A DNA stretch of 64,000 bases from Rhizophagus irregularis (Eukaryota), in contig NC_089434.1 of assembly GCF_026210795.1 (NCBI RefSeq), positions 2,294,001-2,358,000 of the forward strand, written 5' to 3'. Both the position numbers and the translations under genes were made by a program. Below are positions 19,057 to 55,539 of the stretch, one piece after another. Each line of letters opens with the position of its first letter. The first letter of the stretch is position 1. The notes under the pieces were generated by a model that was not told the origin of the DNA, did no database searches, and was given only the letters and a program-made list of their open reading frames with translations.

Positions 19057-19639
19057 GTTGGGTGGCGCAGTAGATTTGTGATTAATTTCGGCTGACACTA
19101 TGGCATAATTCAGGCTGATCTTTTGGGTACGTGATTTGAGGGTCCAACTCAGTGCCATGGTAGCGACCTGGCAGTGCCTTGGGACTTTCCTGGAACTTTT
19201 ATCGAACTGGCAGGGTACTGGAGTGTTTCTATTAATTTGCCAGTTTCAGTACCAGCTTTGGATGCCGAAATATTATGCCCAAAGATCTGGCCAAAATTGT
19301 GAAATAGTGTTGACTGAATTTATACTGCACCTTACTGCATCATGGTCATATGATCCTATTCTGGCACTGAACACCCTTTGCCATATAATATAGCAAATTC
19401 GGTTAATTCTATTAGTTCACCAGTTCAGAAGTATGATATGCATTATTATGGCCAGCCCATTTGATTACCAAAAAGTGCGCCATCCTACAATCTAACTATT
19501 GACTATTTATTGCTGGTATATGTATGCCAATTTCGTATCCCAATATTTGAATCATTAGAACGCATTTATATTATATTTTACCATATTTTCAGGCATATTA
19601 GGATATAAATGAAAAAATCGAAATTTTTCTGTAGAGTGT

Positions 19640-20140
19640 AGACGCTATGAACATTTTTCTGTGAACACTATGGACGCTTCTATGGACAACCATGGTATTA
19701 TTTTTAGGGTTTTTAAGTTTATTGCTTATTTTCTTTTATATTTGTCCCTAGTGTCTATAGTGTCCCTAGTAAAAGTAAAGTTGTAGGAAAATTTTTGAAA
19801 CTTTTCCTATGCTATATATGTTCCATTATATGCGATTATTTTTTATGCGATATGGGTGGTATATGTGTAATATATGCTATGCTAAAAAATAAAAAAAAAA
19901 GTTAAGAGATCCGATTTTTTCTATGGTCACTATGGTCAATATGGTCACCCATCTGTAAAGCCTTTTAGAGATCTAAAAGCATCAAAAACCCTACTTCCGA
20001 CATCCACAGAAGCGTCCATAGTCTGATTTTTTCTATGGTCGCTATGGTCACCCATCTGGACGGCTTTCCAGGAATCTAAACTGCCCAAAATCTACTTCGA
20101 CGTCCATAAGCGTTTATAGTCCAATTTTTTCTACGACAAC
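19640..20140. repeat. Iteron-like direct and inverted repeats upstream of the primase-helicase gene
   Basis: Many CTATGG(A/T)C / GTCCATAG motifs. Inverted pair at 19668-19687 and 20003-20021, an imperfect ~110-bp direct duplication (19912 vs 20024), and an A-rich tract at ~19883-19900. Confidence 0.65.
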
Positions 20141-20564
20141 TTTCTAAGACCAGTTCTGTATCGTATCAAACCTTTTAATTTTATCGAGATTTCCTCTCAT
20201 CGCCTCTGGAGCTTTGCCCGCTCTGAAACATCTTATTTAACTTTTTCTGGTGATAATATGCATTTGAATGGCACTTATTTACATGCCAATTACAATATCC
20301 ATATTTTGATGCTATCGGTCTTACACACCCATCTTGTTTGCACGGATGTCGCTGACGTCTTTTCCAGTGAATATGACACCCTTGTGGTCAGTCTGCAAGA
20401 TTTCCACAAACCATCCCTTCATTGGAAGGATATTGGCAAATGTATTCACCTCCCATTATTCTCAGATAGCTTTTTGATGACTATAATAAATAATTATTTT
20501 CATTTTAAACTTTTTTACTATAGTAATATACTAAAGGGTATACTTAGATATCATATCCCAAAAA

Positions 20565-23500
20565 ATGACCAAATCTGACTTCTTCGAAGACGCGCCCTCC
20601 GTCCCGTACTATTATGGGTTTAAAGTCTCCAACATAGGACAATACTTTTACAAAATTCGTGATGATAGTATCAGGCCAAAAGAATTTCTTGGTGCAGACA
20701 ATGAGGATGAAATAGAAGCCATACTCTCAGATCGTGAAGGTCATTCTTTACATGAATTCATTGATGGTGATGAGCCACTCCGGCCTATTATAGATTTTGA
20801 TTTGCCAGTAGAAACATTAAATGCTATTACTCCCAAGCTTTCAGGTGGTTAGGCAAAAAATATACTTTGTCGTAGCTTTAGAGATTAGAGATACTTGCCT
20901 AGAAATATTCCCAAAATGGGATAAAAATACTATGTCTATTGCTGATAGTAATGATGAGAAAAAAATATCTCTACATGTCTTAACTTCTGGCATGAGACTC
21001 CCAAATATCGCTCAGGTCACAATGTTCACTGAGCTTGTCTGTAAGAAACTTCCAGAAGGGTTGCAAGGAAAAGGTATTATCGATAATATAGCAAACAAAT
21101 GATCATTCTCCTTACGAATGATTGAAACACCTAAGTTTGATGAAAAGACTGGAAAACACATTTGTGTGAAAAAAACTATTCTCCCAAAGATGGAACAATC
21201 TTCGACTTCATGCTTCGTCCACCCAATGATGAATCAGAAGTCATAGAAAGTCCTCTCTTAGTCATTCCGGAGTCAGAAAGTATAAGTCATAGTAGTATGG
21301 GCATTGATGTAACAGAAGTCGAATTAGAATTAGTTGGGAAATTGCTCCAAGAGACCAGCATAGAAGGATTTAACCTCTCGTTCCCATCTTAACAATCTCC
21401 TGATATCTTTCCTCTTAAATGCATGGCCCAATCATATTGTTCATTATGTGACCAAGAACATACCAACGAAAATGCATATATTATACGAAATAAAAAATCA
21501 TATAGTTTTCATTACTATCGAGTAGACCAGGAAAAGCCACCTGGGTCAAGAAAGCCTTCAATAAAACTTACTCCTAGTGAGACAGCTTTGAGCTGAGAAA
21601 AGAACCTTCCGGCTCCAGTAAAATTAGAACAATCTAGAATTTCAAACCCAAAAGACCATTTTGTATGGTGGAATTTAATACGTATGTGTACTTTAAGTAA
21701 GAAATTCTCCTGCGCTGAAGTTTATGAAGCAATCCAATCAACCATTGCTTATATTCAAAAGAAAATACCAATCTGAATATTAAAACATAAGGATCCAGAA
21801 AATGGGCTTTACTTCAATATGGGAGCTGAGCTAAAGCTTGCCAAGTTTGAGATTAAAATAATCAAATATAGGGGTGAATCGGTAAAGTTAAAATCGTTAA
21901 TAGACCAGGCAGTTATTAAAGGTCTAATCGTTTACGAAGATTATTACTTCCTCCCATATCCCATAAGCATTCTTCAACCAGATTCAGATTTCTTTAACCT
22001 TTTCCTAGAATTTTTAGCTAAGCCGGGGACTCGAGCCGAGCTACAGTCTGGCTTGGCTCGGCTTGAAGATTTGCGCCAAGCCAAGCCTGAAATGAGCCAA
22101 GCCACAAAAAATCTTGGCTCAGCTCAATTCGAGCCAAGCTGAGCCATGAAAATCCTGGTTTGAGCCAAGCTGGGCTCGAGCTGGCTCGAGTTTTATCATA
22201 AAAATGTTTTCGCAACGTTTTTACTTTAAATTATTAAAAAAAGCGTTGCAAAACGTTTTTTACTTTTATATTTATATAAAACGCCGAAACTATTTGTTTC
22301 AGCATTTTTCCTTTTGATTTTACATGTAAAAACGCCGAAACTGATAGTTTCATCGTTTTTTTTCGATTTTACATGTAAAAGCGCCAGAATAATTAGTTCT
22401 GGCGTATTTCCTTTTGATTTTACATGTAAAAACGCTGAAACTGATAGTTTTGGCGGTTTTCTTTTGATTTTACATGTAAAACCGCCGAAACTGATAGTTT
22501 TGGCGGTTTTCTTTTGATTTTACATGTAAAAATGCCGAAACTGATAGTTTTGGCGTATTTCTTTTAATTTTACATGTAAAAATGCCGAAACAGATAGTTT
22601 TGGTATTTTTATTCAATTGTACATGTAAAAACGCCAGAATAATTAGTTCTGGCATTTTTCTTTTTGATTTTACATGTAAAAATGCCAGAATTATCAGTTC
22701 CGGCAGTTTCTTTTTGATTTTACATGTAAAAATGCCAAAACTATTAGTTCCGGTGTTTTTTTTCAATTTTACATGTAAAAACGCCAGAATCATTAGTTCC
22801 AGCATTTTTTTTTCAATTTTACATATAAAAACGCCGAAACTATTAATTCCGGCGTTTTTTTTTCAATTTTACATGTAAAAACGCCAGAATCATTAGTTCC
22901 GGCATTTTTTTTTCAATTTTACATGTAAAAACTTAAATAAACATTTTCGCAACGTTCTTTAATAAACAATGAAAAAAAGTTGCGAAAACGTTTCGTTTAT
23001 GCATGCATTATTATATAAAAACGTTTCGCAATGTTTTTTGTATAATAGCTCGTTTGGCTCGTGAGCCAGCTCAAGCTTTTTGAGCCAAGTCTGTTACAGG
23101 CTCGAGCTTTTTGAGCTGAGCCTAATAACTGGCTCGAGCTCTTCTAAACTGGCTCGTGGGCCACCAAGCCAATTTAATCATGGCTTAGCTTGGCTCAGCT
23201 TGAAAAGCTTGAGCCAGCTCATAAGCCAGCTTGGCTCGTGTAAAGCACTACCAGTGATAAAGGTTAATAAAGAAATTATGGATCTGATTCTCTGACATGT
23301 AAAGAATATAATTTGCAATGGAGATGAAAAACTCAATGAATATATCTGGAACTGGTGGGCATATTTAGTTCAAAAGCCAGAAAAGAAGCCTCGAACAATC
23401 TTAGTACTAAAATCCACTTTACAACAGTATGGGAAAAATATTATCACTGATTTTATTGGTGATAAAGTTCTAGGAGAGCATCTTCACTATGCAGGATCGG

Positions 23501-24969
23501 ATTTGGAAAAAATGCTTAGGCGCTTTAATAGCGTCATCCAAGCTCGAAAACTTATTGTTATGAATGAGACTGGGATGTCTAGTGGAGAATGGCATAGATT
23601 TAATGGGCATCTTAAATCTCTTATAACAGAAGGGAAGGTATCCATAGAACGCAAAGGTCTCGAAACTAAGAGATTAAAAGATTTTGCTGGATATATGATT
23701 ACAAGCAATCAGGATGCACCAATTAAGATAGATATAGGAGATTCTTGCGTAGTCTGTTTTGAAGTCTCAGCATGCTGTAGGAGTAATATACCGTATTTTG
23801 ACCAGCTAGGAGAAATTCTAGATCATCCTGATGCACCAGGTATGGTTATGACATACTTTCTTAATCTTGATTTATCAAAATTTAGTCTGGAAAAAATTCC
23901 TAATACTAAAATGAAAGTAGAAACAATGCGCAATCATCTCCCTAATCCTATTCGGTTTATAATAAATTATATTTCATTATAGGATGTGAATAAAATAGCT
24001 AAGCTAAGCAGTACATCTCTATATCAACATTATCTTGAATGGTGTGAAGAGAATGGAGAAAAGCCATTAACTAACAATATTCTCGGCCAGAAGTTTGCAC
24101 AAATCAGCATTGATAAAGTGCGTTCACGAGATAATGGAGTAAGAGTAAATCAGTATATTCTTGGCCGCTCCAAGATTGTAGCTAAGCTTCGTAAATCTGG
24201 CCTAGGCGATATGGAAGAATTTTCTGATATATCTCAAGATGACTTACCCGAAAATGAGACAGCAGACATACCCATATTCAATGTGCCAGAAATTATTCCC
24301 CCAAAAATAATCCCGACTCTTCTAGAAAAGAATACGCCTCCACTTAATACTAGTAAAGATAAGAAGGCGGATAAGAAGAGCGATGTGACTCAAGACCTTT
24401 TCGACTACGTAACAGAACAAACTGAAGCTCCGGTCGCCTCAACAGATCTTGAAGGGACCACATCTGGCACATCTGAGACTTCTAAAACGCCTGAGTCACC
24501 AATCAATAAGCCCAAAGTCGGTAAGCCTCCTGAATCTAACGAGTCTAGCAACGAAGTGGTGAATTTATCTCCTAAAGAAACAAATGTTAAGCATGATTCT
24601 CCAAAGCCTAATGAAGTATCGTCTGCTATACTCCTGGCTAGACAACAGCGTGAAGAGCGCCTCAGAAAAAAGGCAGTCGAACTCGGTGAGAATCCAGATG
24701 CCTTTGTGACCATCACCGAAAAAGACCGATTCGATTCCATTACATTCCGTGATAGAATGGTAACTGATTCACGAATGTGTGCTTGGGCTATAGAGCTAGA
24801 GGATAATTCCAAAGAACATATGGACATGACAATACGAGAAAGATTAATAGGAGAAGAAATAATCTGTTGTTCTCTCGAGGAAGATGAGATCATATCCTCA
24901 TGGCTCGATACCGATAAGAAATGGAAAAAAACAGTAAGCATACTCCAGAAGAATGGTATGCTTTGGTAA
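20565..24969 (+). pseudogene. AEP primase-Zn ribbon-SF3 (D5-like) helicase fusion, disrupted
   Basis: HEFIDGDEPLRPIIDFD (AEP motif I), KISLHV (motif II), IIDN..SFSLRM (motif III), CSLCDQEHTNEN (Zn ribbon), LVLKSTLQQYGKN (Walker A), KLIVMNE (Walker B), YMITSN (motif C), LYQHYLEWCEENGEKP (D5 C-terminal wHTH-like). No introns seen. Several stops and frameshifts plus the insertion at 22027-23250. Confidence 0.85.
22027..23250. mobile_element. hAT-like MITE inserted in the primase-helicase gene, with ~50-bp tandem array
   Basis: GAGCC/GGCTC subterminal repeats on both sides; right end ...GTAAAGCACTA, left TIR eroded. About 13 units TTTTACATGTAAAA-CGCC(G)AAACT..AGTTT(C)GGCG at 22270-22930. Reading frame FLAKP|VIKVNKE rejoins across it. 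Confidence 0.8.
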
Positions 24970-25315: not shown

Positions 25316-26477
25316 ATGGCTGGCATCGCTACTAAGTATGTAACAGAAAATGGGCTTAATAACGAAATAAGTATCGAAGAGCTCATTCAACATGCGCCAG
25401 AATTTAACATCCTTTTGACGGATAAAGTTAAGAGAAATCAGGCACGTCGATGTCTTCAAAAAGGATACAACTTTAGCAAAGAGTAGATATTTGCATTGAT
25501 TCTTAAGCTGATGGCTGGTCGAAAAAAAGGTGAAGCTATATCCCATAATACTCCAGATACTCCCAATGTTCTCCAAGAAGTAGAACCGGTGGAGGGAGGC
25601 ACGGTAAATGTGTGCCAAATTTCGCAAAAAGAGACTATTAGAGATTTGGCCCAGCGTATCATTCGGGATAATCTTGGTGAAGCAGAAGTAAAAGTTATAG
25701 CTAAAGCCTTAGCTGAATCTGCCTCTAATGCTAGCACTGGTTTATCCCGAATTTCTAGGCTTCGAAGAGAGTTGCGAAATCTCAAAGTCTCAGAAAAAAT
25801 TATTTCGGCTACATTGATTCCAGACATAAATCGCTTAGCTAATAAAATTCAAAAGGAAAAAGGTTTGCTATGTGAAAATGAAGGCATTGATTACCCAGAT
25901 TACTTTGCGTTAGAATCAGTTAAGAAAAGATTGGATGTGTATGATGTATCCAAAGTTCCTGGCTTGCAAACCCTTGCCGATATATAAATAATAATGCTCT
26001 GCATCCGTCTTGCTGAAATAAAAACCCTGCGTATATCTAATGGAGGTGTAACTGGATATGCAAAAAACCGGGAACAACAAGACATTTCTCGAGTATTTAG
26101 ATTACTAGAAAAGAACGAGGAGCGGGCTAGTCAATTGCTTATGTGGATTCAGGAAGCAATTTCTTCCAGACACTTACGAGACCCTGGAAATCCTGGAGTG
26201 TTATGGTTTAATACATTTCTGAAAAAAGATGAGTTCCTTCCTGAAACTGGCAAACCACTACTTCCTAGTTCTTTGCGCAAATTAAGGGCGGTATTTGCAG
26301 TCGTTTCGAATTGTGCGAAGAATTTATCAGAGGCTATGACTATTGCCAGTGAAGCACTTCGCTACAGTCCTGACAACCATGCCTCTCCTGCAAAAAACTA
26401 TACTATAGTAAATTATCGCAAAAGAGGACAACCTCACTGATCAGGCAAAGGCAATCAAGATTTTTGATGAAAACTAA
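25316..26477 (+). pseudogene. Tyrosine recombinase / telomere-resolvase (protelomerase)-like protein, disrupted
   Basis: Catalytic-type residues in the right order: MLCIRLAEI (R), GYAKNR (K), PSSLRKL (HxxR position), EALRYSPD (LRH position, here Y), PAKNY (Y). Helical N-terminus SRISRLRRELR. In-frame stops at ~25484 and 25985 and a frameshift near 26438. Family call is by motif only. Confidence 0.6.
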
Positions 26478-26609
26478 TCACATATATGGGTTAGAGGGGA
26501 TCCTAGAGAGATCAGATCAGGAGGCATTACCTCTGGTAACCCTGGTATCATTTATTAATTTTATTTTTTCGCTCGAGACAAGATCTAGCATATAGAATAT
26601 ATTACGAAA

Positions 26610-27026
26610 ATGGTAGCTGATCAAAAGTATTCATCTGATATATCCAGCGAGCAGGAAGTTATCAGATATACAGAGAAATTACCCCAGTCATTAGGACTGG
26701 ATGAGCAGAATACAAGAGCATATAAAGCACTCTCTAGACAGATTTGGGCGTTAGAAAAAAGACTGGAAGATTATTATTTCGAATATGTAAAGCTTAAAAA
26801 GAAGGTCAATTTATTGAAAGCTGAATTGGATGATCTGGACGAATGTGTGGATAGGGAGACTGTGGTCGACTTAATTCATGAAATAGTTCTTTCGCTGATT
26901 GGTAAAGCAGGGCAGAAAGAATGTAAGGGTTCTTCCTATTCGTCTGACTCTTCCAAAGAATCTGATTTAGTTGAGATGGTAAGAGAACGAAAAGCTGTCC
27001 CTCATAAGCAACGAAGGAAGGCGTGA
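26610..27026 (+). CDS. Hypothetical coiled-coil protein
   Basis: ATG-initiated, intronless 138-aa ORF with heptad stretch LEKRLEDYYFEYVKLKKKVNLLKAELDDL. Confidence 0.5.
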   Translation: MVADQKYSSDISSEQEVIRYTEKLPQSLGLDEQNTRAYKALSRQIWALEKRLEDYYFEYVKLKKKVNLLKAELDDLDECVDRETVVDLIHEIVLSLIGKAGQKECKGSSYSSDSSKESDLVEMVRERKAVPHKQRRKA

Positions 27027-27118
27027 CCAAGAAAAGTTAAGCGGGTGGTAGTTTGAAGTGGGCCGAGCCAGAATTTTATTTTTTCGTTTAAAGATACAAC
27101 ATATAAAATGGAATATTT

Positions 27119-28427
27119 ATGACGCAATCAAGCATCTTTTATTTACCAGAAGTATTAGAACATATTTTACATTTCTTATTGATAGATAAATCCATCTACC
27201 CTGCTCTATATGTTTCCCAATTGTGATACAGATGCGGTACCCTATTCTATGGAGATGCATTGAGCTAAAGGGAATGATCCCAAAGCAAAGAAATTCATAA
27301 AATTAGTATGTGGAAAGCAAAAGCCAATTTATAGCTTGAAACTAACCCATCTCGAAATTCCATACTATAATCTACTTTCAAGTAAGAAAATTGAAGGCAT
27401 CGTAAGAACATGCCCAAACATAATTCATTTGAATTTCGAAAATTGTGTGGGTTTTAGTAATAGAGCATTAAATCAGCTTAAAGCATATCCCAATGTGAGA
27501 TATCTCAATTTATGTAGTAGTGGTATTATGGGTGATAAAGCTTTATGTGGAATGGTGGAATCATGTCGTAAAATAGAATATCTAAATATTTCTTTCTGTC
27601 AAGGCATTACTGATAGATCTTTAATCAAAATTGCGGACAGTTGTCAAGCTTTACAAAAGTTTCATTTTGCTTGTGCGCATTTGATTTCTGAAAGATTTAT
27701 AAGTTACATCTTAAACTCATGCCCAAATTTACTAAGATTCAGTATTCCGGGTAGCTGTCGAAGAAAAAATAGATGTGATATATTAGTAGAAAAACTTCTT
27801 ACTATAGAGAAATACCTTAATGTAGAGAAACATCTTAGTGTAGAGTATCTTGATTTTGGTAGGTGTGTTTACATCGCTGAGACTTCAATTTGCAATGCCA
27901 TTCATTCCTGTCCAAATCTCCAACATCTCAACCTTAGTTTTTGTGGAATTACTGATAAAACTATCGAAGAAATTGCTAGATCATGTTATATTTTAAAATA
28001 TCTTAATTTAAGGGGGTGTTATAAAATTAGCAAAGGAGTCGTAAATAAGCTAAATCCAAATATCCACATAGAGAATTTCGAGGAAACTTTATCACATCCC
28101 GATCTCATTAGAGCAGTTAGAAATCATCTTATACAGAATAATGTTTTTAATAGATAAATTTTAGCTCAGGGTCTTCAGCGCCTCTTAGATTTAAGTATGC
28201 GAGATAATTTGCAGTGGTATTCCGATCCAGGGTTGGCTAGATCAACAGTTCAGAGTGGTGGTCGGTTATATAACACCCGGCATAGTGTTGCTAATAATCA
28301 AAATTCAGTTCTATCTCAGATACACTGGCAACCTAACAGACGGTCACTAAGGAATTATTTTGATAGAATACTAGCTAATCAAGCAAAATGCTGGTACTCT
28401 ATTGATCTAACTAATCCGGAGCAGTGA
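27119..28427 (+). pseudogene. F-box / LRR (RNI-like, FBXL type) protein, disrupted
   Basis: F-box-like IFYLPEVLEHILHFL...ILWRCIEL (frameshifted), then Cys-containing LRRs such as [26 protein letters not shown]; in-frame stop at 28155. Confidence 0.8.
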
Positions 28428-28480
28428 TCAGCTCAGAAGATTTTTTGTTGGGTTATAGTCTGTGTGATAAAAAATATAGA

Positions 28481-29107
28481 TTAGCTAACCTGTTCTAGAC
28501 ATGGGCATTGACCGGCACTAGATGGATTTTTGATGAATATTTCGTGCAATTGTTGAGGAGAGAGCTTCAGAAATAATGGAAGCCCCTCTCCAGTAAACAT
28601 AATTTTCTTTACACCTATTTCACCATATTTCGGAAATATCACACCTGGATCATCCTTTAAGGGACCATGAAACTCCTTAAGCTTCCGGAGATATGCTCTC
28701 ATATTTTCATCAACTTCTTCTGCTCTTTCTTGATTAGAATAGCCAACAATGTCGAGTTTATCCTGAATTGCTATTATATCCTCTTTCAAACACATAAACA
28801 AATTAAATATTTCACTAAATGGAATATCTGTAGAAGCTTTATTGCTTCGGAGTGCTTCTTCTAGAATGGGATTACCATCAATATTGAGTTTCTCCTGAAT
28901 CGGTATTAAATCCCCTACCAATTCTAACAACAGCTCGTAAGAATCGGCAAGTGTTTTTCCCATGAGCTCGGAATCTAGAGGCACTACTAATTCATTTGCA
29001 TTGCCAGGGCCAATACCGAGTTTCTCCTAAATAGCTATTATATCCTTCTTCTTATATAAAAACAGTCCATAAAACTGAGCAAGCGTTTCAGGGTTATTAT
29101 TTGCCAT
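28481..29107 (-). pseudogene. Hypothetical protein with internal repeat
   Basis: 167-aa ORF with two I..IQ(E/D)KL(N/D)I.G motifs; upstream ATG at ~29107 separated by a stop. Confidence 0.4.
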
Positions 29108-29687: not shown

Positions 29688-30095
29688 ATGTCTGATAAAG
29701 CTAGTATTATTACTCTCAACTGTCTCATCTCCGGCGAGGAAGCAAACGATGTCTTTGGAATAAAAATATCTTGCGAAGGAGTATCAAACTCAAATGATAA
29801 TCGAGTTTCTATTCTTGCAGATAAAATCAGAAACTGTCGTCTAGATCTATTTAAAGATACTGATTCGAGCAAGCTAATTTTATATATGAATAAGGCTGAA
29901 GCTGATAGTGTCGTAATTCTCGGCTTAAAAAATGATAAAGGGGCTATATTGAATGGTACGGAATTGATGAAGCATGAAAACACCATTTTAAGTTATTTTA
30001 ATGGTCAACCCTCTCCTAAATATCAAGGCGAAAAGGGGTCAATATTATCGTATATCCTCCTACAGATGATTAATATTTTCATTCGTATCATGTAA
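29688..30095 (+). CDS. Divergent Crinkler (CRN) N-terminal ubiquitin-like domain protein
   Basis: ITLNCLISGE...FGIKI...VSILADKI...KLILY..., the same pattern as the CRN domain at 30485; probable frameshift near the end. Confidence 0.55.
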   Translation: MSDKASIITLNCLISGEEANDVFGIKISCEGVSNSNDNRVSILADKIRNCRLDLFKDTDSSKLILYMNKAEADSVVILGLKNDKGAILNGTELMKHENTILSYFNGQPSPKYQGEKGSILSYILLQMINIFIRIM

Positions 30096-41600: not shown

Positions 41601-42559
41601 ATTGAATGATTGACAAAGAACCAATAGGATAAATAGAGTCAATCAATTGCGGCTTAGAATCTTTAACAATAAGAACGATTAGAAAGAATAATTATAAGCC
41701 ACAAAAGATAGATTATAAGCAAAACACATAAAGCGGATTGAAAGAACATATAAAATAATGTCAGAAAGATTAAAGAACATAAAATAATATAAAAGATAAT
41801 ATAAAAAGATAATACAAAGATATTATAAAAGATAATATATATATATAAAAGATAGCATATTAAAAGATAGCGTATTTAAAATATAGATAGTATATTAGAA
41901 AGATAGTTCAAAGATAATATGTAAAAAGAATATCAAAGATAGTATATAGATAGAATAGAAAGTAGTGTAAATTTGTATAAATAGAGAACGGAATTCAAAG
42001 TAATTCCACAGTTCTCATTCACAAAACTCAATAAAAATATAAGTTTCATTTAATTATTTGTTAATAAAGTTTAATATTAATTAAAGGTAATAGGTTCGCC
42101 CTAAACTTTAATTAATGTTGCTTAATTAATTTTAATTGAAAAATGGAAATTTTAAGATGAATTAAATATACATTTTTGAAAAGTAATAATTCGTAGCGAG
42201 AGCTATCGAAGTTTGAAATTAAAGGTAAAAGTGGATATAATTTGGGGAAAATTTAGAGAAGTTAAATTTTATTTTATATTGTTCAACGTTTTATATTACT
42301 AACGCTATTTATGTCGTGAACCAAGAATGTTGTTATATATTGTTGTTAATTATTTGTTCGTTTGTTCAATTGTTCGTTCATTCGTTCATTCGTTCGTTCG
42401 ACCACGAGAATGCCCGTTCGATGTGGCAACTCTGTAAATTGATGACAGAGGGAAATGGGGGATCTCAACGTCCTAACTTTTAAATCCTAAATTCCTAATT
42501 ATATTATAGATTTTATTTATAAAATATAATTAATTACACTAAAATGTTCCAAAAAAATG

Positions 42560-44780: not shown

Positions 44781-45499
44781 CATTTAATTCTCCTTCACTA
44801 TTAATTTCATTATCTTTAACATCACTAATTTGAATAACCTCTGTATTTTTATCATTTCGACTTCTTTTTTTGTTGGTTTGTCAGTTTTTTTCTCTTGAGG
44901 AGTATAATTATTTAGATATTTTGTGATATCTTCCATTCTTATTACGCTTAAAAAAAAAGAAAAATTAGATTATCATATCGTTTATCTAATACGAATATAT
45001 ATACGATGCATATCAAATTTTTTTGTGCACGGAATAAAATTTTTTGTGCACGAAAATGTGCACTATTATTTGTGCACTATGGATAAACCACATGTGAAAA
45101 AAAATTGGTGTATGGCAGTCTGCCAGATGATCAGTAATTGAAAGGGACCAATAAATTAATTAGCATAATGAAAACAATTTTTAAGAGCATTGGATATCAT
45201 TTAAGGATCTTATAGAAAAGGCTTTAATTTTTAGCGGCGCTGAAAATTTTGATGATAGTCATGTATTAATTATTAAGTATTATTTGATTCTTGCATCAAA
45301 TCATTAAGTTTAGCATTATTTGAAGACTTTTTTATTTAATATAATAATTACAAACATGCTATTATTTTATGTATTTATTATAATTTTGAAGGATATCGGA
45401 ATGTGAATTATTATTCTGTGAATGAAAATAAAAAACTCATTCATCATTATCGACTAAAAAAGGAAAAGAAATTAATAAATTTTGTATTTACGACTAAAA

Positions 45500-46291
45500 A
45501 AGAAAAAAAAAATTAATAAATTTTGTACTTACCATTTCGATCTTCTGTATTTAGAGTATTCGTATTTTGAGTATTCTGGCTCCTACGTGCTATAAAATAA
45601 TTAAGAAAATCAATAAAAATTTATAATTTGATTAAACTTTTATACTTTACATACCATTCCTTCTGTTTCGTCTGCGTTGAGTTATATTAACACCAATTGA
45701 AGCCTGTACAAACTGATCATCTAGAAACATATTAAATCATATTAAATAAAACAATTTACCTCTTTAATATAATCATTTTGTTGATTATGTAATGTTGTTA
45801 GATTTAAAAGTTCTTACCTGATTTCTCCCAAAACCGTGTATTTATGACTTCAAAAAAAATGGCACCAGCACTGCTTCTTGCCCCTCTCAGATCGTTTGCA
45901 ATCACTAATAATTGATCCTAAAGTATTAAGTGTTAAATAAGTATTAAAATTACTATTACAACAAATTTTTATTAATATTTAACTCACGTGATAACTGGTC
46001 ACTAATCCATTGAATTTTGTTTGGCACTGTTTGCCCGAATAATTGCTCCTACACCTCTCATTTACTTTATTCGCAACAGAATTCCAGAAATTTTTTCTAC
46101 TTCTTCCTGCAATTTGATAATGGTACTCGAAGTTTCTTGACCTCTGCTGCTCAATCAAAGCAGCGATTTGGTCATCCGACCACTCCACCCGGCCGAAAGA
46201 ATAAGTTATAGTGTTGAAAATGGAGGTAGTATTGACATTGATGGTATTGGTATCATTGACGGTGGTTGAATCAGTTGAAGATGAGGACATT
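45500..46291 (-). CDS. Myb/SANT-like DNA-binding protein (multi-exon) carried by the CACTA element
   Basis: EWSDDQIAALIEQQR..FWNSVANKVNE..YSGKQCQTKFNGLVTSY followed by small GT-AG exons; 3' end approximate. Confidence 0.65.
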
Positions 46292-47000
46292 GTTTGAAAT
46301 TTTGTTAAAAAATTGTTTAGAATATTTGGAAACATATTTGATAAAAAAAAATGTATTGATTATAAAAAAAAATATGTATTGATTATTAATTAGTATTGAT
46401 TATCAAAAAAATGCAAGAAAGTTCTTGTAACAATTCTAATTATGCCATTCAATTATCATGATATTACATTATTTCATTTTTTAATTATTAGTACAATTTT
46501 TAATGTAACACCATTTCAAAATGATTTCGTTGATTCATGATATTATATCATAAAATTCACAAAATATAGAATTCGTAAAACTCCGTCTCTTGTCCATTAA
46601 AAGTGATTAAAATGTCAATCTTCCATTGTTTTCCATCGTACAAAAAAAAAATTAGCCATTAAAAGTAATTAAAAATTTTGTAAATTAAGCCCGGTATTAT
46701 TCTTACGTAAAAATTAACATTTATTTATTACGACTTACTAATGCGAAAAAAAATTAATTAATTTTATTAATTTTACATCTCAGATTGATTTAATGTTAAT
46801 TTTCAAATGTTGAATTAATGTTGAGCGCGTTAAACGAATTCGTTGAGCAAAAATTATGCTTATATAATACGCGATTAATAATTTTTCATTTGATGAAAGT
46901 CACGAGACATACTATCTTCTTGCTTATATTATACACGATTATCACTAAGCTTGAAATGGAAATCAAATGTGTCATCATTTTCTTTATTTGGTGTGGCATA

Positions 47001-50000
47001 CTACAAGTTAAATATTCTATTCAAAGGTATAATCGACAAATATTTTTGTTTTCCTACCGTAATATTTCTAAATTTTGTAGCTCGACATAATATCCTATGA
47101 ACCGCTAACAGGGAATCACAACCTTCTTGAAAGTATTCGGCTTTCCATAATTCGGTATTTGATATTTCTGGCTCCATAAAACTAAGTTTAAACCGAATAC
47201 TAGAAGAAGGTGCAGGTTTATACCACTTGACATATGCTAGGAGGTGAGTTTTCGTTCCTTCTGGAAATCTAAGGGCATGCTTGAAATAATATTGGACTTC
47301 ACCCGGATAAGTGTCAACTGAATCATCATTAGCTGCTTTCCATTTTGCAAATATATTCGCATTTTTATCATGGCGACCAGAAATCATAGATCCAAATATT
47401 TCGGCGCCAATTTGTAGTCTTGCATGCTGATTCATATGCAAATCCATAAATCCTAACACATCTTCTTTTTCCCTTTCATATAATATTGCATACCATTCAC
47501 ATAGAAATCCTCGCAACTCCAAAGGCATAACGACATTGATATATGATGGGTTAAGCATTTGGCCAGGTAATGGTTCAGTGCCATATATTTTGGAAATCAT
47601 AGACGTATTATGTCTCATGAATAGAAAATGCTGCAGTTCCTCTCTTTCTGCTGTGATTGCTAAACTTCCTACAGCTTTTTTTAGTACAAGAAGATGGAGA
47701 GATTCATCTAGAAGGCCAGATGTCCATTTACATGATAAGTGATAATCCACCAAAGTGTTTTTAAGAACAATTTTCATTAATTCGGGTTTTATTTGTCGGT
47801 TACTATTAGGATATGATCCTAAATAACAGGAATTTTTTTAATAAAGGTACTAAAGACAATTGAAAAACACTGAAGTAAATTTACCTATATATCCATTAAG
47901 TCTTTCAAACGGGAAAAGCCAAAAACTATATATAGGACCATAATCACAACAGCAATCAGGGATATGAAGTGCGAGATGTATATTGCTTGTTATAAATTCT
48001 AGTCCATATGTATATTCTATAAGGTAGGCCATATCTTTTAACCTCTCTTGCGCCTCCTTCAAATCATCATCTGTAATAAATCTTGCTACTAAAAGATTAC
48101 AAGCTCGAACAAAATGCCCTAAGATCTTTCTATCATTATCATCTAGCATATCCCATAATATAGATGTAGAATAAATCATAATAAAGGTCTTCCATTGATC
48201 GCAGTTTTGTTAGAAAATCCATCATTTCCGATTGCAATCTTTGGAGGAATTCTACCAATGTCAGAAGGTAAATCAATATTATCCATTCTGTTTTGTGCTA
48301 CACGAAGTTGTTCCATAGTTAATTTTTTTGGTTTACAAAAATGGATTTGATTATCCATTTTGCAACACCGAGGAAAAGACAATGCATAGGATCTTACAGG
48401 CAAATCGTATAGGATCCATGTATGGTAGGCAAACTAACTTCAGTATCTTATACCATGTACTTTAAAATGTGCTTCTCTGGAGGACTTTGAGTTACATTGC
48501 AACCATTCATGAGCATATTGCCTATGTAATAAAAGATCTGCAGACTTTGTTACCCATTCATTATAATCTTGCATTCCTTCGTAATGAGTTTTTCTAAATT
48601 CCTTGCTATAAGTGATACGTTTATCACACCTATAGCATTTCATTACTGCAGATCAACGAGGCCAAATAACTTTCGTGTAGCTGGAGTATCAGACGATCCA
48701 ACAATTAACGCAACTTTTATTTCTAAACCATTGGAAAATTGGTGAGTTTTTGGTACTTTCCACCCCTTCCAAAGTTCTAATAACTCATCTACAATAGGAG
48801 CTAGATAATGATTAATGCGTTCCAACCCTGCTCTTTTAATCCGGTAAGAAACCCAAATATATAATATTTTTGGGCTTATTCCTTTCCTGACCTTGGAAGA
48901 TTGCAAATAGACGCATAAATAGCGCCAGTACTATGCTACGTGTAGGAGAATGGTTGGAACCAATCAAGATTAAGGAAGGACCTAGATGGGTTGTGGCAGT
49001 CTCTGTTGTAAAAAAGGTACTACCATCAAATGGAAAATTTTTCCATACCTTACCATTGTAAATATCTGAATAGATATTATTTTCGTTTTTTTGAGTCCCT
49101 GATAATTTTAACATGTTCTCAAAATCTGGTCGTTGATATAAAATGCTCAATTGCTGACGAATGTTTGGCTTAGGATAAAGCATGTGAGTACCGCAATTGT
49201 TGCATTTTTATTTTTTTGAGAATGGAAAGTGGATTATTGCATTGGTGATTACGACTTGATATTGGATTATTTGGATACTCTTTATACGGGCAATTCATTA
49301 TAGCAACTTTTCCTTCTTCCTTATATGCAATAATATCTTTAACATTATGCAATTTATGGCAATCGGTACATGCAGCTAATTGCATTTTCGGTTGAAAAAT
49401 GTTTAACCATATTTTTGCCATATATAATGAGGTAGGAAAATTTTCAAATTGCAACTTATCAAAGCGCATAAGAATTATATGAAAAAAATTTTATTAAGAA
49501 TTCAAGTGCAATATCAGGCAATCGAAATCTTTGTTGAAATTTAAATAGCCATATTATAATCTCAGTATTAATAGAATCACTTAAGCTTTCCACTATAAAT
49601 GCTTCTTCATTGTCATTGTCAATCTTAGGAGATGCGAAAAAATCTTCTACATCATCATTCTCCTCTCCTTTATCCACATCATCATTCTCTTCCTCATCCA
49701 TATTATCTACATCATCATTCTCCTCTCCTTCATTCACATCATCATTCTCTTCCCCATCCATATTATTTACATCATCATTCTCCTCTCCCTCATCCACATC
49801 ATCATTCTCTTCCTCATCCATATTATTTACATCATCATTCTCTTCCCCCTCATTTATATTATCTACATTATAATTCTCACCAAAATAATTGATTTCATCA
49901 TTATTTTCATCAATTGTAGGTGCTGAAATACGAAAACATGAAGGTTTTGATGAAAATAATGTTATATTTTCTTCAATATATTGGAAAGAGGGACCAGGAT

Positions 50001-50376
50001 GGGAAGAGTCCTGATCCGGACTAGATGTACCGGAGTAATTATTTCTTTCTCGCTTTTTTGATATGTTCAATTTTATTTCTGTATTTATATATGTATTATT
50101 AACAGATGATGTTTTTTTCTTTTTTATCATGATGGTATTTTCCTGATTTTTTCTAGAATCTTTTGATCTCGATTCCCACAAACTATCATCATACATATGT
50201 TTCTCTTGAGTATGAGAATCAACTTCTGCACCTTTGCAACGAGCACAATTGCAAATATACAAATACTTTTTTTTGGGCTTTATTAAATCAGCCACAAAGG
50301 TTTCAGAGGTTTCAACTTTACGTTTTTTATTACTCTTTATTAATTCAGATACAGAGTTACATTTTTTATTACTCAT
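47001..50376 (-). pseudogene. En/Spm (CACTA, TnpD-like) transposase
   Basis: YSDIYNGKVW, DWFQPF, ICNLP..ERNKP, INHYLAPIVDELLELW.G, DTPATRK, DPMHCLFLGV, NIHLALHIPD..YGP..FWLFPFERLNG, YPGEVQYYF; many frameshifts. Confidence 0.9.
49640..49865 (-). repeat. Coding minisatellite (alternating ~24/33-bp units, EENDDV) in the transposase N-terminus
   Basis: ACATCATCATTCTC repeated seven times; translates to NDDVNNMDEEENDDVDEGEE. Confidence 0.8.
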
Positions 50377-50689
50377 TTTTATTAAAATGTATAAAATATA
50401 TTTTTTATTCTATCACTTTTAATAGTTAGTAATCAAGACGTTCAGAAACGAGCTTTTAATAATCCTTATCATACAAAAGAATTGCACAAGAATTTTATGA
50501 GCGCGTTACTTTTACCTGGTGAAAATTGTGCAAACGCGTTGCTACCTCTGAGCCTTGATCTGCATCCTGAAATCTCCGAAATTATTATAAATTTGCACAC
50601 AATCAACTTTTCTCGCGTTCTGAAATCTCTACTTTATACGGGATTTTTTTATTTTACAAAATAACAAAAAGATTTTATACTTCGTAACA

Positions 50690-51871
50690 ATGAATAGTGA
50701 TAATGTATCATCTAGTGATGAATCATCATCTTCATCATCCTCCTCCTCCTCCTCCTCTTCTTCTTCTTCCTTTTCTAAAAGTTGTTATAACACGATAAAA
50801 GCAAGTATTTGATTATTTTATATATTATTTCTGCTTTTATCCTATTTACATTTATCTATTATTTTACAGAAAGAAGTGTTTATTTGGAGTGACTCCGAGC
50901 TAAAAGACGTATACAGTATTAACTATGAGCTCACATGGGCTGAGCAAAAAGATAACATAGTCACCAAGTTGCTTTCACCACTTTACAAACTTGTAAATAA
51001 AAAATATAAAGTCTCAAATAGTGATTTATTAAAGATGTTATATGGACGTTAGCGATCTCGCCATCGCGTTAGTAATATTAGAAAGCAAGGGGAAGCCCAA
51101 ATAAAACGTAACAAAAGAAGAGCAATGAAGAATTCAAGGATGCAGGATGTAAATTATTTAATTAACAGAAGCTATTAAATTTAGTTTTTTTTTAAATTAA
51201 TTATATTGTGCTTTATAATTAACATTGTTAGAAAAAAAAAGAATAATAAACGCGGCCAATTACCTAATACAAAATAAAGATAAGTACATTTGCCGATATC
51301 CTGAAAAGGATCTAGTTCAAATTTTAAAAGATTCAGGCTACCATTCCGAAAAATGGGAGGAAACCGACGAAGATGATGAAGTTGATGAAAATGATGAAGA
51401 AAAAGTAGTCACAAAAAAAAATTCGATATATATTTATGAAAGATGGTGGAGATCTCCTGCTGTATGTATATTTTATTATTTTTTATCAAAGTATAAACAC
51501 TAATTTATAGTTTAATTTCTTTATTTAAGTTTCAACGTTTATTACATGATCGTATTGATCCAACGGTAGAGTTATTAAGAAAAAAACCACCAAACTTAAA
51601 ATGTAAAAGAGTTCTAGACAAAACAGAAACAGCTAGTGTGCCACCTGCCAGCGCACCAAGCTGGTGTTTAAATAGAGAAGCACTTGAAAAATTCAACCAT
51701 TTAACCAAAAATATCCCAGTTTATGATTATGATACTGATGAAAGTATTATTCAAGACAACAATGGTGCTGATGATGATGTTGATAATAACGTCGTAAATA
51801 ACAAAAATAACAACAAAAGGAAAAAAAAGAAAAATAAATCTAAATCAAAAAATAGAAAATCAAAAAAATAA
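50690..51871 (+). pseudogene. CACTA accessory ORF (multi-exon), divergent from the transposase
   Basis: Exons with GYHSEKWEE, ERWWRSPA and PPASAPSWC motifs and a basic tail; lies inside the CACTA TIRs. Confidence 0.5.
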
Positions 51872-54358
51872 ATTTTACAATTATTACACTTTTGCCTAAA
51901 TAGGTTTATCGTAAAAAATACTAATCAGACTTTAATAAAAATCAGAATTCAACATTTTCATTTAATTTTTTTAAAAATTGATTGATTAAATTAAAAATAT
52001 CATGGTTTGATAAAGCTATAGATTACAGTTTATTTTTTATTAATAAACAAGTTACGGTACTGATTACTTTATTACAGTAACAATTTAATTACGGATAAGG
52101 TATTTAATAAGATATCAAAAACTGATTAATAAAATTTTCTATATTAACATACGATAAATTAGATTAATGAGCTAAATACGATAATATTATTTTTTCAAAA
52201 AAATTAAAATGAAAATATACACAAATTTTTGTTTTTGGTATGTAAGTCAAATTAAATTACTATATGCTTAAATCATAACTCATAACCCAAAGTTGAGGAT
52301 TAACCAGGTACCTTGCTTTAGATTCAGCGACACTTCCCAAGTCAGATGAGGTGCCACAGGTACGCTTTAAGAAAACTCGCTATGATAATAAGGATAAGTA
52401 TATTCAAAAATACCATTTATGAATGAACATAGGATACGATGAATAATCTCAAATAGAAAAATAAAAAATAAAAAAATAAAATAAAATAAAAATAAAAATA
52501 TAAAAAATAAAATAAAATAAAAAAAATATTTTCAATTAGACAAAGCATCCTCGTTCCTTCCTGGAATTCTCATTTGACTAAATTATTATTGTTTGTAATT
52601 TGATCCATTTGAATCCACCATAAATTGCCAGACAGGACGAACCCTTATTAGACAAGTATAGCTTCATCACCAAATGGCTGCGATGTGTTTAATGATATGG
52701 CAACCTGTTTAATTCATTTTTAAATGAGCAAACGTGGCCATAAAACTCATTAAAAAGGTAGGCTACAGAGTGCAATGCAACCTACCTAACCTAACAAGTA
52801 GGTCTAAGGGTTAGGGAATAAAATATACCCTAAACCCACGCAGTTGGTATGGAAATAAAAGTTTACAAACGGAAGTTTCAGACTGTGCCTGACGACAAAA
52901 TGGGTGAGGTGCAATCAGGACTTTTTCCTCTAATTCAGCCCAGAATTATAGAGGCAACATTGTTATCGTACAAGCACATCGACGAAAACGTCTTTCAAAG
53001 AAATTAATCAATAAAGAGTATACTTGGGCAATAGCCGATCTTCATCGTCATCCTATAAACTCCAAAAGAACAGGGATCAGCGCAGGCATTTTGGCTTACG
53101 TATTTCTTTAAAGATTAATTAAATTGAAAGATAGGATCCAAATTCAATATGACTGAATCGATCGCCTCCGGTTATCAAACTTCCATTAGAAGTGATCGCT
53201 AGAATCAAAGATACCAATAATCACCCTTATCAGTAACGATTGAACTAAAGATGTTGGAGAAATAAAATTCATCATTTATATGGAATTAGTTTGTATTACA
53301 ATTTTATTACGATTTGGGTAAAAAAAATATCTCCCTAAAATTTATTTTTTTTTCAGGTATCCTGGCTATATGGAAAGATTCCTAATATGGTAATAGTACA
53401 ATACACCTTATACGCCATTTTGCAAATTCAGTGTAATAGTTTACAAAGAAAAAAAGGTGAACGTATTTATTTTTTTGCTATGAGAAATTTAATTACAATA
53501 AGTGGATTTCAGAAAATCGCAGTAATTTGAATAATTTGTATATGCTTTTGATAACGGGTTTGAAGTTTAGGTATTCTCTGGCCGCACTCTTGTATTACTA
53601 TGATCACTGAGAGTTGGCTTGCTTATATAATAATCTTATCATTCAATATTTCCTAAAAAAGTAAATAAACATCATCTATTTATAAGTATTCATGATTTGG
53701 AAAAACTCCGTATGAAGTTGAATCAAGCACTCCATAGCAATTATCTTTTTTCGTACACTGTATTACATTTTTACAAAGTACAAAGCGTACAAAGCCAATA
53801 CCAAATAGGCGAAAATCAGTAGCTATTTTCTATACTACGATAATATTAAATAAACACACAAATTTTTTTAAAGATCGTACAAATATCGGTGACCGATATA
53901 TATTAGATAACGGATCGGTGACTAATAGTTTGGATATCGGACACTTGGTAATTTACATTTTTTTAACCATATTTGAAATTTGCGCATTATGTGACAAATC
54001 GGGTACCCGATATGTTGTTAATATGTAAAAATGCCCGATATGTACCTAATTAGTCACCGATATATAGGTACCCGATATGTGTGAGATAGATCGTTTTTTG
54101 ACTTGTGGAAGACGCATGTAAATATAAGATTAGCTTAGCTTGAGAGATGATCCCAATCGAATTTGGGTTTAGTAGTATGTAGTCTCTCTAAATCGGCTAC
54201 AAATCGATAAAACTGCTATAAATCATTAAAACTGCTTAACCGGCAAATTTGAAACATGTTATCCATTAGTATAAGATACTAAAAAGTTGCTAAAAATGCT
54301 ATAAATCAATAAATTGCTATAAATCGTTATAATTCGTTCATTTAAGTGAACAAGAAAT

Positions 54359-55234
54359 ATGTCCGGATTATCTTCTAATATTATTTTAGATGAGTGGTTT
54401 AATAAGATTGTGCCTAAACCTATTAATAATCATCCTGGATACGATATGAAATATGTTAGCGCATATATTGTAAATTACTGTTATGGTACTGACCTCAAAA
54501 AAATAATCGGAATAGAGTGGGAGTATGATACATTATCAGTTGTGAAACCAGGTCAGTCTCTAGTTGCATGGGCTGTAAATGTCAGAATTCGATTACAAAA
54601 ATTATTAGCCAATCAGAGATTTAGTGTATATTACCGACATTGCTTATTTGCAGGATTTGGGAATGGCAAGATGGTTAATTCTGACTATCATCAGCCCAGA
54701 ATCAATAAGAGTAATATGGCTATTTGGTTTGATTGCTGGAAATTGGTAAAGATTACTGATATAAAACCAAAAAAAACATATTTCAGTGGATGGCGCAGAT
54801 ATGGATATGAGATTAAATCTGAGGACTTGATGAAATACCATTGGAATAATGAATGCTCCAAAGCTAAAACCCCAGATGGAAGTGCTCGGCTTATTCAAAA
54901 AGCTTATAGAAATTATAGGAAGAGGCCTGTTTTACTAGCAAAACAAGTTTGGGAGGCAGTTAGAAATGATAACACTCCTAGAGAAAAGAAGTTTCTTAGT
55001 ATGCCTAGTAGAGATACTCGTTGCACTGTAAACTTGGATATATGGTATTCTATTGATGGATTATATAGACCTTTTAATATTCCACTAGATCAATTTTATG
55101 ATTATATAAGTTATTCAAAGCATAAGAGGTGCCAATTATCTGATAGATTGGCCATAGCAAGAAATAAAATACAATGCAACTATATCGTAATAAAATGCTT
55201 TCAAATTTTAGTAATTTATATTTCATTTTCTTAA
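54359..55234 (+). CDS. Hypothetical intronless protein with one IQ-like motif
   Basis: 291-aa ATG ORF containing SARLIQKAYRNYRKR. Confidence 0.55.
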   Translation: MSGLSSNIILDEWFNKIVPKPINNHPGYDMKYVSAYIVNYCYGTDLKKIIGIEWEYDTLSVVKPGQSLVAWAVNVRIRLQKLLANQRFSVYYRHCLFAGFGNGKMVNSDYHQPRINKSNMAIWFDCWKLVKITDIKPKKTYFSGWRRYGYEIKSEDLMKYHWNNECSKAKTPDGSARLIQKAYRNYRKRPVLLAKQVWEAVRNDNTPREKKFLSMPSRDTRCTVNLDIWYSIDGLYRPFNIPLDQFYDYISYSKHKRCQLSDRLAIARNKIQCNYIVIKCFQILVIYISFS

Positions 55235-55539
55235 CTTCGAAATGATTTCACTAACTTCTTATCAGTTATCGAATTGCAAAAGTGATACAGGCGGAATATT
55301 TATCTCGTCTCAGTATGCAAAACAGCCAAAAGGCACTATGTTGAGATTAAGGGATGGGAGAGTAATCACGGTTGTCTAACTGGCTTAAGGCACTTCGCAA
55401 TATCTTTCAACTGATCATTAGCATTATATATCTCTCGACTATGTCAAGGCCAACCATAACTTATACTTTATTTTTTTGCGAAATGAATTGCTATATAATC
55501 TGCCTAGTAAAATTGGCCAAAGGCGCTATGCATGAAATG

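Follow-up and report, generated by a model that had tools for sequence, protein, structure and literature searches.

What kind of element combines a virus-type replication gene with a tyrosine recombinase gene in the genome of the arbuscular mycorrhizal (AM) fungus Rhizophagus irregularis, and how would such an element replicate? The question arises from a stretch of 64,000 nucleotides (NCBI RefSeq assembly GCF_026210795.1, contig NC_089434.1, positions 2,294,001 to 2,358,000), hereafter the window, to which all coordinates refer. A preliminary description had placed in it, at 19600–55500, a self-replicating mobile element with a primase–helicase, a resolvase-like recombinase and effector-like cargo, and re-examination located all the listed parts where they had been reported. 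Our analysis indicates that the block is probably a decayed copy of a mobile family that extends across Glomeromycota and joins a giant-virus-type primase–helicase to a predicted telomere resolvase. The element likely starts at a palindrome, and the family would likely replicate, coat-less, as linear DNA with hairpin ends. Evidence from beyond the window comes from protein collections (P numbers denote proteins), 80 soil contigs (L numbers) and contigs from sequencing runs (X numbers); DNA runs were compared as assembled contigs.

A primase–helicase of the giant-virus type

The first core gene is a replicase disrupted by frameshifts, stop codons and an insertion of ~1.2 kb (~22031–23244). Four tblastn pieces (53–63% identity) together match the full conserved length of the intact relatives P0130 and P0134; intact relatives measure 1000–1180 aa and were aligned along window positions 20601–24966. 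The proposed AEP, zinc-finger and SF3 domains are borne out by Pfam (DUF5906, E 4e-18; Pox_D5, E 1e-7), by a match of the helicase part to the PDB primase chains 6k9c/6k9e (E 1e-14) and by the relatives' alignment, in which AEP-type DxD and sxH motifs, a Cys/His zinc finger and an SF3 helicase were recognized by eye. The AEP part, represented by the N-terminal 330 aa of intact P0132, matches AEP_C962R/Herpes_UL52 clusters at 0.95–0.97, mostly from Nucleocytoviricota, and by sequence similarity the primase is of the giant-virus C962R type. The D5-type replicase is reminiscent of C962R of African swine fever virus (ASFV).

A different replicase is found on the 12.8-kb contig L034. There (L034:843–3647), a recombinase of the same family is paired with an AEP fused to a UL9/CyRepA1-type SF2 helicase (E 6e-12 and 2.5e-42), a protein that we take to be reminiscent of ASFV F1055L. 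It follows from this contig that, across the family, the resolvase stays the same while the replicase can be exchanged. Upstream of the window replicase, the repeats that had been described as an iteron region do exist, although the signal is modest: one 8-mer is present four times, a number attained in 1 of 500 shuffles.

The recombinase is predicted to resemble telomere resolvases in fold

The second core gene belongs to the tyrosine recombinase (YR) superfamily. Its fold was compared using the intact relative on L034, not the broken window copy. An AlphaFold2 model of the L034 core (275 aa, pLDDT 89.8) was searched against 48,161 chains, only four of which reached a Z-score of at least 8, and all four are telomere resolvases: TelA twice (Z 13.7 each, root-mean-square deviation (rmsd) 6.5, with 251 and 248 residues aligned across both domains), TelK (Z 11.9, rmsd 4.1, 178 aligned) and ResT (Z 8.7, rmsd 4.0, 139 aligned). 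The next folds are SroF (Z 7.2) and lambda Int (Z 7.1), with integrases spanning 5.5–7.1. TelA also occupies ranks 1–6 in Foldseek (E 0.0085–0.03), and the telomere resolvase of EhV-86 holds rank 2 in BFVD. Language-model features (Atlas) point the same way: 19 of the 30 matches of P0008 are PF16684 clusters (best 0.95), resting on 155–157 shared features, and one, at rank 20, is a phage integrase. The other ten have no family in common, the best being a Mucoromycota cluster that is probably the query's own.

The catalytic residues R, K, R, H and Y are kept in nine of nine intact open reading frames (ORFs) and are also in place among relatives of ~35% identity. The position three residues before the second Arg (His-I) is occupied by R in four, K in two and S in three of the nine, and never by His; in an alignment, TelN carries Lys there. 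On this model-based evidence, and short of proof, the recombinase is likely a telomere resolvase and seems unlike an ordinary integrase. The earlier label 'resolvase-like' therefore stands by fold and features, specifically in the sense of a hairpin telomere resolvase; since the fold and feature searches indicate a hairpin resolvase, this enzyme is probably not the one that integrates the element.

A dispersed family with a conserved core

All named homologues of the core genes come from Glomeromycota. A search with P0003 returned 316 relatives among 5480 candidates, and a profile search 547 representatives at 50% identity. The recombinase family occurs in Gigaspora, Dentiscutata, Cetraspora, Diversispora, Acaulospora, Entrophospora, Geosiphon and Ambispora, with the orders Glomerales, Diversisporales, Entrophosporales and Archaeosporales covered. 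Within one R. irregularis assembly, eleven OCT59_ tags fall on records of nine different lengths, where multi-contig clusters may take their length from another assembly. With many records and Glomeromycota-wide relatives, the family behaves like a dispersed mobile element of AM fungi, as the preliminary description had envisaged.

The two core genes keep each other's company. In six of ten replicase clusters, at least one member bears a number adjacent to that of a recombinase, as in GBC54095/6, GBC12517/8, GBC45496/7, GES83069/70, PKY56850/1, PKC01758/9, PKY30167/8 and RirG_199070/080, the last-listed strain pairs of which may represent one insertion. Gene models fusing neighbouring parts account for 29 of 471 proteins, 15 of them running from replicase into recombinase. 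On the 22 soil contigs with at least 600 bp upstream of the recombinase, the nearest gene is a D5 replicase in eight, a small 2C_adapt-like ORF in seven, a reverse zinc finger in four and none that was recognized in three. Adjacency is thus common, not strict, and the earlier claim of a conserved core with variable neighbours is upheld; the pair adjoins elsewhere too, both in Rhizophagus loci and in soil contigs.

The recombinase is intact in 7 of the 33 soil contigs that cover the whole gene. Its median ratio of non-synonymous to synonymous substitution rates (dN/dS) is 0.19 (0.11–0.34) for 33 of 36 pairs among nine ORFs, a set of seven intact and two near-complete ORFs in which three are near-identical; by this measure the family is under purifying selection.

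Six unnamed, Ala/Gly-rich relatives of the recombinase at ~35% identity were found in Logan, ENA and JGI (P0237, P0246, P0273, P0288, P0292 and P0298), on contigs of up to 22 kb. They probably come from non-fungal, GC-rich hosts or viruses; GTDB gave no match for a distant recombinase, and IMG/VR no relative by recombinase or replicase. Three recombinase genes whose accession numbers are spaced by 11 (CAB5301653/664/675) lie on one 6.9-Mb record, and one 76-kb Entrophospora contig carries three replicases; these may be tandem or concatemeric arrays.

A palindrome at the likely left end

Three kilobases upstream of the replicase lies a loop-less 50-bp palindrome with AG...CT ends (Table 1), which is likely the left end of the element. 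Its best arm of 26 compares with 9–13 in 30 local shuffles of 16–58 kb, and the base found at 17589 in all matching contigs of three DNA runs makes the palindrome perfect. In the next 320 bp, a 10-mer of the arm recurs three times and an 8-mer six times. In a related contig, 17904 is directly followed by 18099 and the sequence continues to 19063, so that the end of the 19-bp array is connected with the body of the element. No second copy of the palindrome is present within the window, and an IMG/VR search with its arm returned no relative.

The right side is different. The block abuts a 52-bp array, and loose ends at 55552 in runs X5 and X8 run on as array. Because this side stops at an array that is cut in its middle, the copy is either truncated or continues past further insertions. 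An inverted comparison of the left (16.3–20.6 kb) with the right (54.1–59 kb) gave only low-complexity matches; the right end is missing. The span of 19600–55500 proposed earlier thus holds for the content of the block but probably not for its start, since the element likely begins 2 kb further left; on the right, no palindrome was found within the window. Among candidate termini, hAT-like terminal inverted repeats (TIRs) at 17340 and 55955 were rejected as outer ends, their flanks failing as a target-site duplication (TSD) by eye, and the 52-bp arrays at 18536–18891 and 55540–55771 were rejected because the left one sits in a hAT miniature inverted-repeat transposable element (MITE) that is absent from relatives.

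A proposed hairpin-ended cycle and its alternatives

A replicase, a predicted resolvase and a likely palindromic end together suggest that the family would replicate as hairpin-ended linear DNA. By analogy with the cycle of phage N15, we infer the following steps. The primase–helicase would open an internal origin, perhaps the repeats at 19.6–20.1 kb, and prime synthesis by a host or helper polymerase. Copying across the hairpin tip would give a palindromic junction, which the resolvase would cut and reseal as two hairpins. If a hairpin tip were opened and then linked with host DNA, a chromosomal copy with the palindrome at its end would result, and the downstream genes (LRR, RING/coiled-coil and protease-like, probably also CRN, Myb and ORF54359) would travel along. 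As no integrase is detectable in the copy, insertion would need an enzyme acting in trans, a reverse resolvase reaction or host repair. ResT can run the reverse (fusion) reaction.

Several results weigh against this reading. All E-values in Foldseek exceed 0.001, the top rank in BFVD goes to the integrase of phage Syn5, and a first, full-length model of low confidence was poor, with a Z of only 6.2. In hhalign comparisons with seven protelomerases the catalytic R, K and R fall into register over 174 columns, but the best E-value is 0.11; the score of 20.9 compares with up to 19.2 in 20 shuffles, and single sequences did no better than integrase controls. PF16684 is absent from the best 25 of 37 Pfam families at E<=1 for 48 members of the recombinase family, and PDB sequence searches with recombinase profiles gave no match. 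(In phage and plasmid tblastn searches no relative appeared, only chance matches to neck proteins at E 3.) The physical link with the genes extends only to ~17870, and no contig connects the palindrome itself with them. The 80 related contigs, mostly short and internal, contain no comparable palindrome; the window has neither a right palindrome nor a testable TSD; and the joints listed from assembled DNA contigs include no hairpin or strand switch. Neither an integrase nor a polymerase was found in the ORFs and read-through frames of this copy. Lastly, the single-copy depth of exact-match core contigs in run X5 (see below) shows that this copy is not amplified.

Three other explanations deserve comparison (cited papers are represented, here and below, by the available parts of their text). 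The recombinase might be an ordinary integrase/excisionase, with a circle excised, copied by the primase–helicase and re-integrated as in the end modules of polinton-like viruses (PLVs), Cryptons and Starships, and with the palindrome as an att-like inverted repeat. Such a cycle accounts for insertion without a second enzyme, the residues R-K-R-H-Y are common to the whole recombinase superfamily, integrases come next in the fold ranking and the Syn5 integrase tops BFVD; moreover, there are PLVs that combine a primase–helicase with a YR, and homologues of their helicase abound in Rhizophagus (PMC11296320, PMC7805220). We nevertheless consider this unlikely, as all four top folds and most feature matches are telomere resolvases, His-I is missing from the family and a loop-less palindrome of 50 bp is closer to telRL of N15 than to a spacer-containing att site. 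A truncated Maverick/Polinton-like endogenous virus, slightly less improbable though still doubtful, would have lost its capsid, ATPase, polymerase and rve genes or carry them beyond the window; the palindrome would then be the tip of a TIR and the resolvase an accessory. Maverick ends follow the rule AG...CT, which the palindrome obeys. The right end is cut here, the remaining window is mostly transposon DNA, and Polintons and Maverick-type ATPases, or PolB, are mentioned for Glomus/Rhizophagus (PMC7805220, bioRxiv 2026.06.19.733378, PMC8502044). Against it, no capsid, ATPase, polymerase or rve gene was found in the ~18 kb that remain or in the eight non-recombinase ORFs of L034, IMG/VR yielded no relative, and a resolvase that selection has kept next to replicases of two different kinds suggests that its role is central. 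The difference between this explanation and the hairpin-ended replicon is mainly one of classification.

Passive spread of an endogenous giant-virus fragment, by segmental duplication and neighbouring transposons and without mobility of its own, appears very improbable. The primase is of the C962R type known from nucleocytoplasmic large DNA viruses (NCLDVs), the region is densely filled with transposons, and one R. irregularis strain has a 1.5-Mb asfarvirus-like region (PMC10640383). That region, however, is strain-specific and, in the available text, reported without D5 (PMC10640383), whereas the present family is dispersed over many records per assembly and across four orders, and its dN/dS together with its variable neighbours fits selection on a mobile unit. 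Nor is the locus part of a continuous NCLDV region, a case raised in the preliminary description: the primase–helicase is the only NCLDV-like gene, with host genes at 8–16 kb (CDC20, CSN7 and actin-like, ending at 16.2 kb and less than 10 kb from the block) and transposons to the right. If the hairpin-ended replicon is accepted, a wider claim presents itself, namely that AM fungi harbour an ancient group of nuclear replicons without capsids, N15-like linear DNAs whose covalently closed hairpin telomeres are made by their own resolvase, which exchange D5 and UL9 replicases, have inserted many times and capture and spread host genes, Crinkler, LRR, kinase and Myb genes among them; we regard this as conceivable but tentative.

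Relation to known elements

The layout was compared with established classes. Capsid, polB, rve, HUH and DUF3435 genes are without a match in the 50 ORFs of this copy and in 33 read-through frames of its gaps and flanks (E<=0.5), as the preliminary description had noted. Neither a major capsid protein (MCP) nor an A32-like ATPase matched in Pfam, PHROG or PDB, where divergent MCPs escape hidden Markov models. This truncated copy, though not necessarily the family, is not Polinton-like in layout, lacking matches to PolB and rve; it is not a Helitron, its replicase being AEP plus SF3 without a HUH–Pif1 RepHel; and it is neither a Crypton/Glomhopper nor a Starship, since neither DUF3504 nor DUF3435 is among the best 25 of 37 families for 48 recombinase members (E<=1) and both were absent from ten distant members. 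The juxtaposition of primase–helicase and tyrosine recombinase, a trait of PLVs, is present.

The closest parallels are found among hairpin-ended replicons. The linear plasmid prophages N15, phiKO2 and PY54, Agrobacterium TelA and Borrelia ResT have the telomere-resolvase fold that is predicted here; in N15, a 56-bp inverted repeat, telRL, with a central cut site parallels the palindrome here, and telN lies within 9 kb of a replication gene, much as the two core genes lie close together. Unlike these systems, the element resides in a eukaryotic nucleus, has a giant-virus-type primase and is seen in chromosomal copies, with no detectable sequence similarity and with no virion or partition genes found. 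Endogenous viral elements (EVEs) of phaeoviruses in Ectocarpus linearise at a telRL-like palindrome and are likewise integrated in a eukaryote, with a telomere resolvase and a separate insertion enzyme (PMC13236599). They differ in size (346–407 kb for two EVEs, compared with ~18 kb), in having virions and their own YR integrase, and in an internal palindrome, where the present element has no detected capsid and an apparently terminal one.

PLVs, represented by the end module CBEV_PLV1 (PMC11296320) and by oomycete PLVs (PMC7805220), resemble the element in the primase–helicase beside a tyrosine recombinase and differ in possessing MCP and ATPase. According to the former paper, R. irregularis has many homologues of the PLV primase–helicase and is predicted to contain polinton-like elements; in their available parts, neither paper defines a fungal element or names the YR a telomere resolvase. 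The Maverick/Polinton reported in Glomus intraradices is likewise a large, self-synthesising DNA element with an AG...CT end, whereas here pPolB, rve, ATPase and capsid were not detected, and an RNA-primed replicase and a hairpin resolvase would take their place. Glomhopper/CryptonA (PMC13465315) and Starships are also fungal tyrosine-recombinase elements, with Starship cargo downstream of the YR, but in our element the replicase precedes the YR; the Glomhopper paper covers DUF3504 elements and, in its available part, no primase, helicase or telomere. D5 is listed for fundsalphaviruses (PMC7017919). 'Helicase-primase' genes were filtered out as transposon-related in one study of AM fungal genomes, which also reports 24% unclassified repeats (PMC8647823).

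Our verdict, by analogy, is that the element would work like N15 or a phaeovirus EVE without the coat; we would class it with the self-synthesising virus-like elements, as a new variant built on a resolvase. It is real and undescribed in the literature searched (main texts, with few subscription papers), where we found neither this element nor any fungal nuclear mobile element built on a telomere resolvase; the telomere resolvases that appear in the accessible parts of the papers found are those of bacteria, phages and brown-algal giant viruses. Repbase and Table S13 of PMC11296320 may already list such proteins. If correct, our reading would explain many gene models of 'highly derived D5-like helicase-primase' in AM fungi and part of the unclassified repeats (PMC8647823). 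It would connect the transposons of fungi with the replication genes of giant viruses, and would define a mobile-element class by hairpin resolution, a cargo vehicle for lineages without Starships and a way for supposedly asexual AM fungi to multiply or move effector-like genes. A eukaryote-adapted hairpin-forming enzyme could then also be useful for DNA technology.

Neighbouring genes and candidate cargo

The next gene downstream of the recombinase, on 36 soil contigs with at least 400 bp there, is the coiled-coil ORF CC1 in 23, an LRR gene, ORF28481 or a protease-like ORF in two each, and none in seven. Three genes are established as neighbours of the core, namely the LRR gene, ORF28481 and the second coiled-coil gene; the C-terminal part of the last matches, at E 1e-10, the RING ORF that follows the recombinase in L033/L034. 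On the upstream side, the zinc-finger ORF of L034 that matches the window pseudogene also matches L005, L016, L063, L066 and L067.

For the effector-like genes the picture is less firm. In one X1 contig 27160 is joined to 29147, so that in another copy the core side is connected with the region upstream of CRN. As a rough guide, the summed depth of relatives is 66–267 on MITE-free bins of 19.5–28.8 kb, 57–65 on Myb and 146–172 on ORF54359, with 72 at the MITE-free and 84 at the CACTA-free joint; these depths would be consistent with a few copies that have both block ends in common, but no contig spans the block. CRN bins reach 320–620, which indicates that CRN genes are also present elsewhere. 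A link of the core to CRN, Myb or ORF54359 was seen in none of the 80 soil contigs (few of which reach 2.5 kb downstream) and in none of 471 related proteins. The earlier proposal that the element amplifies and shuffles effector-like genes is thus weakly supported; on balance, we lean towards regarding these genes as cargo. No Pfam match supports a nuclease part of the CRN-kinase gene, a label that comes from the preliminary description alone, and ORF54359 has no Pfam match above cut-off and none in PHROG, NCBIfam or PDB. The block had been called mostly intronless, but GT-AG candidate introns occur in the CRN-kinase and Myb genes. An 18-nt motif near gene ends was rejected as an integron-like cassette site, with two copies in the window and none in 80 loci.

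Aspartyl-protease-like ORFs often follow the recombinase in relatives (L033, L034, L011, L043, L046, L049 and L078; P0090, P0182 and P0408), one of them with a gag-like tail, and are missing from the window copy. An HNH-like ORF, recognized by eye, directly follows the recombinase at L008:1272–1685. A further Myb/SANT-like ORF lies inside the CACTA element at 45979–46359, besides that at 37899–38213 in the block.

Table 1. Features of the block and of the transposons nested in it (window coordinates)
Feature	Position	Strand	Remarks
Palindrome, 50 bp, AG...CT, no loop, 1 mismatch	17542–17591	.	likely left end; candidate telRL-like site; overlooked in preliminary description
Subterminal 19-bp repeat array	17600–17900 (17614–17741)	.	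10-nt motif in common with palindrome arm
hAT-type MITE, foreign to element	18147–19056		8-bp TSD; contains 52-bp array
Short dispersed repeats upstream of replicase	19600–20130		possible, putative origin
Small Cys/His zinc-finger pseudogene	20229–20480	-	tblastn E 2.5e-6 to L034 ORF; overlooked in preliminary description
AEP-Zn-SF3 (D5-like) primase–helicase pseudogene	20547–24969	+	tblastn, Pfam, relatives' alignment
MITE of ~1.2 kb inside replicase	~22031–23244		50-bp array; approximate ends
Tyrosine-recombinase-superfamily pseudogene	25316–26480	+	internal stops; intact relatives are predicted telomere resolvases
Conserved coiled-coil ORF CC1	26607–27026	+	commonest downstream neighbour
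F-box/LRR-type pseudogene	27081–28427	+	Pfam LRR; stops; in 8/80 related contigs
Conserved reverse ORF28481, no assigned function	28481–28963	-	in L031, L033, L034, L046; overlooked in preliminary description
Short CRN N-terminal-domain ORF, candidate cargo	29688–30095	+	Pfam Crinkler E 1e-7
CRN-kinase gene, candidate cargo	30485–34376	+	Crinkler E 6e-27, Pkinase E 1e-14; stops, pogo
pogo/Tc5 transposon in CRN-kinase gene	31321–33513		TA TSD; Pfam HTH_Tnp_Tc5, DDE_1
Second coiled-coil gene	34720–36860	+	split by hAT MITE
hAT MITE in second coiled-coil gene	35341–35785		8-bp TSD
Myb/SANT-like gene, candidate cargo	37899–38800	+	candidate intron; Myb_DNA-bind_4 E 5e-9
CACTA-type transposon, foreign to element	39094–54107		3-bp TSD; carries further hAT insertions
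ORF54359, 291 aa open, no family	54359–55420	+	contiguous with Myb side in CACTA-free relatives
Apparent right breakpoint	55530–55552	.	block abuts 52-bp array cut mid-array

State of the window copy and its surroundings

Five transposons are nested in the block (a hAT MITE, the MITE in the replicase, a pogo element, a second hAT MITE and a CACTA element), and subtracting them leaves ~18.2 kb between 17542 and 55539. For three of the five, insertion-free joints are known from other copies: 18132>19063 without the first hAT MITE (three DNA runs), 31316>33512 without pogo (DNA and RNA runs) and 39090>54108 without CACTA (three of four runs). The gene-bearing parts have a GC content of 36–38%, compared with 33% for host genes. 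The core is also poor in CpG (observed/expected 0.57–0.71 versus 0.99), which would fit methylation-driven decay.

In run X5, exact-match core contigs have a depth of 13.4–17.5, close to that of host DNA (15.3 and 17.9), which indicates that the window copy is single and chromosomal; it appears single and dead. The X1 depth (86–553 on exact-match contigs versus 21.5) had suggested extrachromosomal amplification. This was rejected, because the X1 profile is a smooth hump and X5 has none, making amplification bias the more likely explanation. An RNA run of the same species label, matched at 85%, gave depths of 0–1.8 on the core and 100–620 on CRN/kinase bins; the latter reads are mostly less than 95% alike, which points to expressed paralogues and says nothing of the window copy.

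Arrays of 50–57-bp units lie within hAT-type MITEs at 18536–18891, 55540–55771, 22278–22932 and 63474–63774. The first two are internally palindromic, and one 52-bp unit occurs in two distinct MITE contexts. To the right of the block, decayed hAT genes (DUF659, BED finger) occupy 56100–61700, and a 203-bp inverted repeat pairs 56170–56372 with 63110–63312. At the opposite edge, window positions 5–1450 hold a long tandem array of ~117-bp units.

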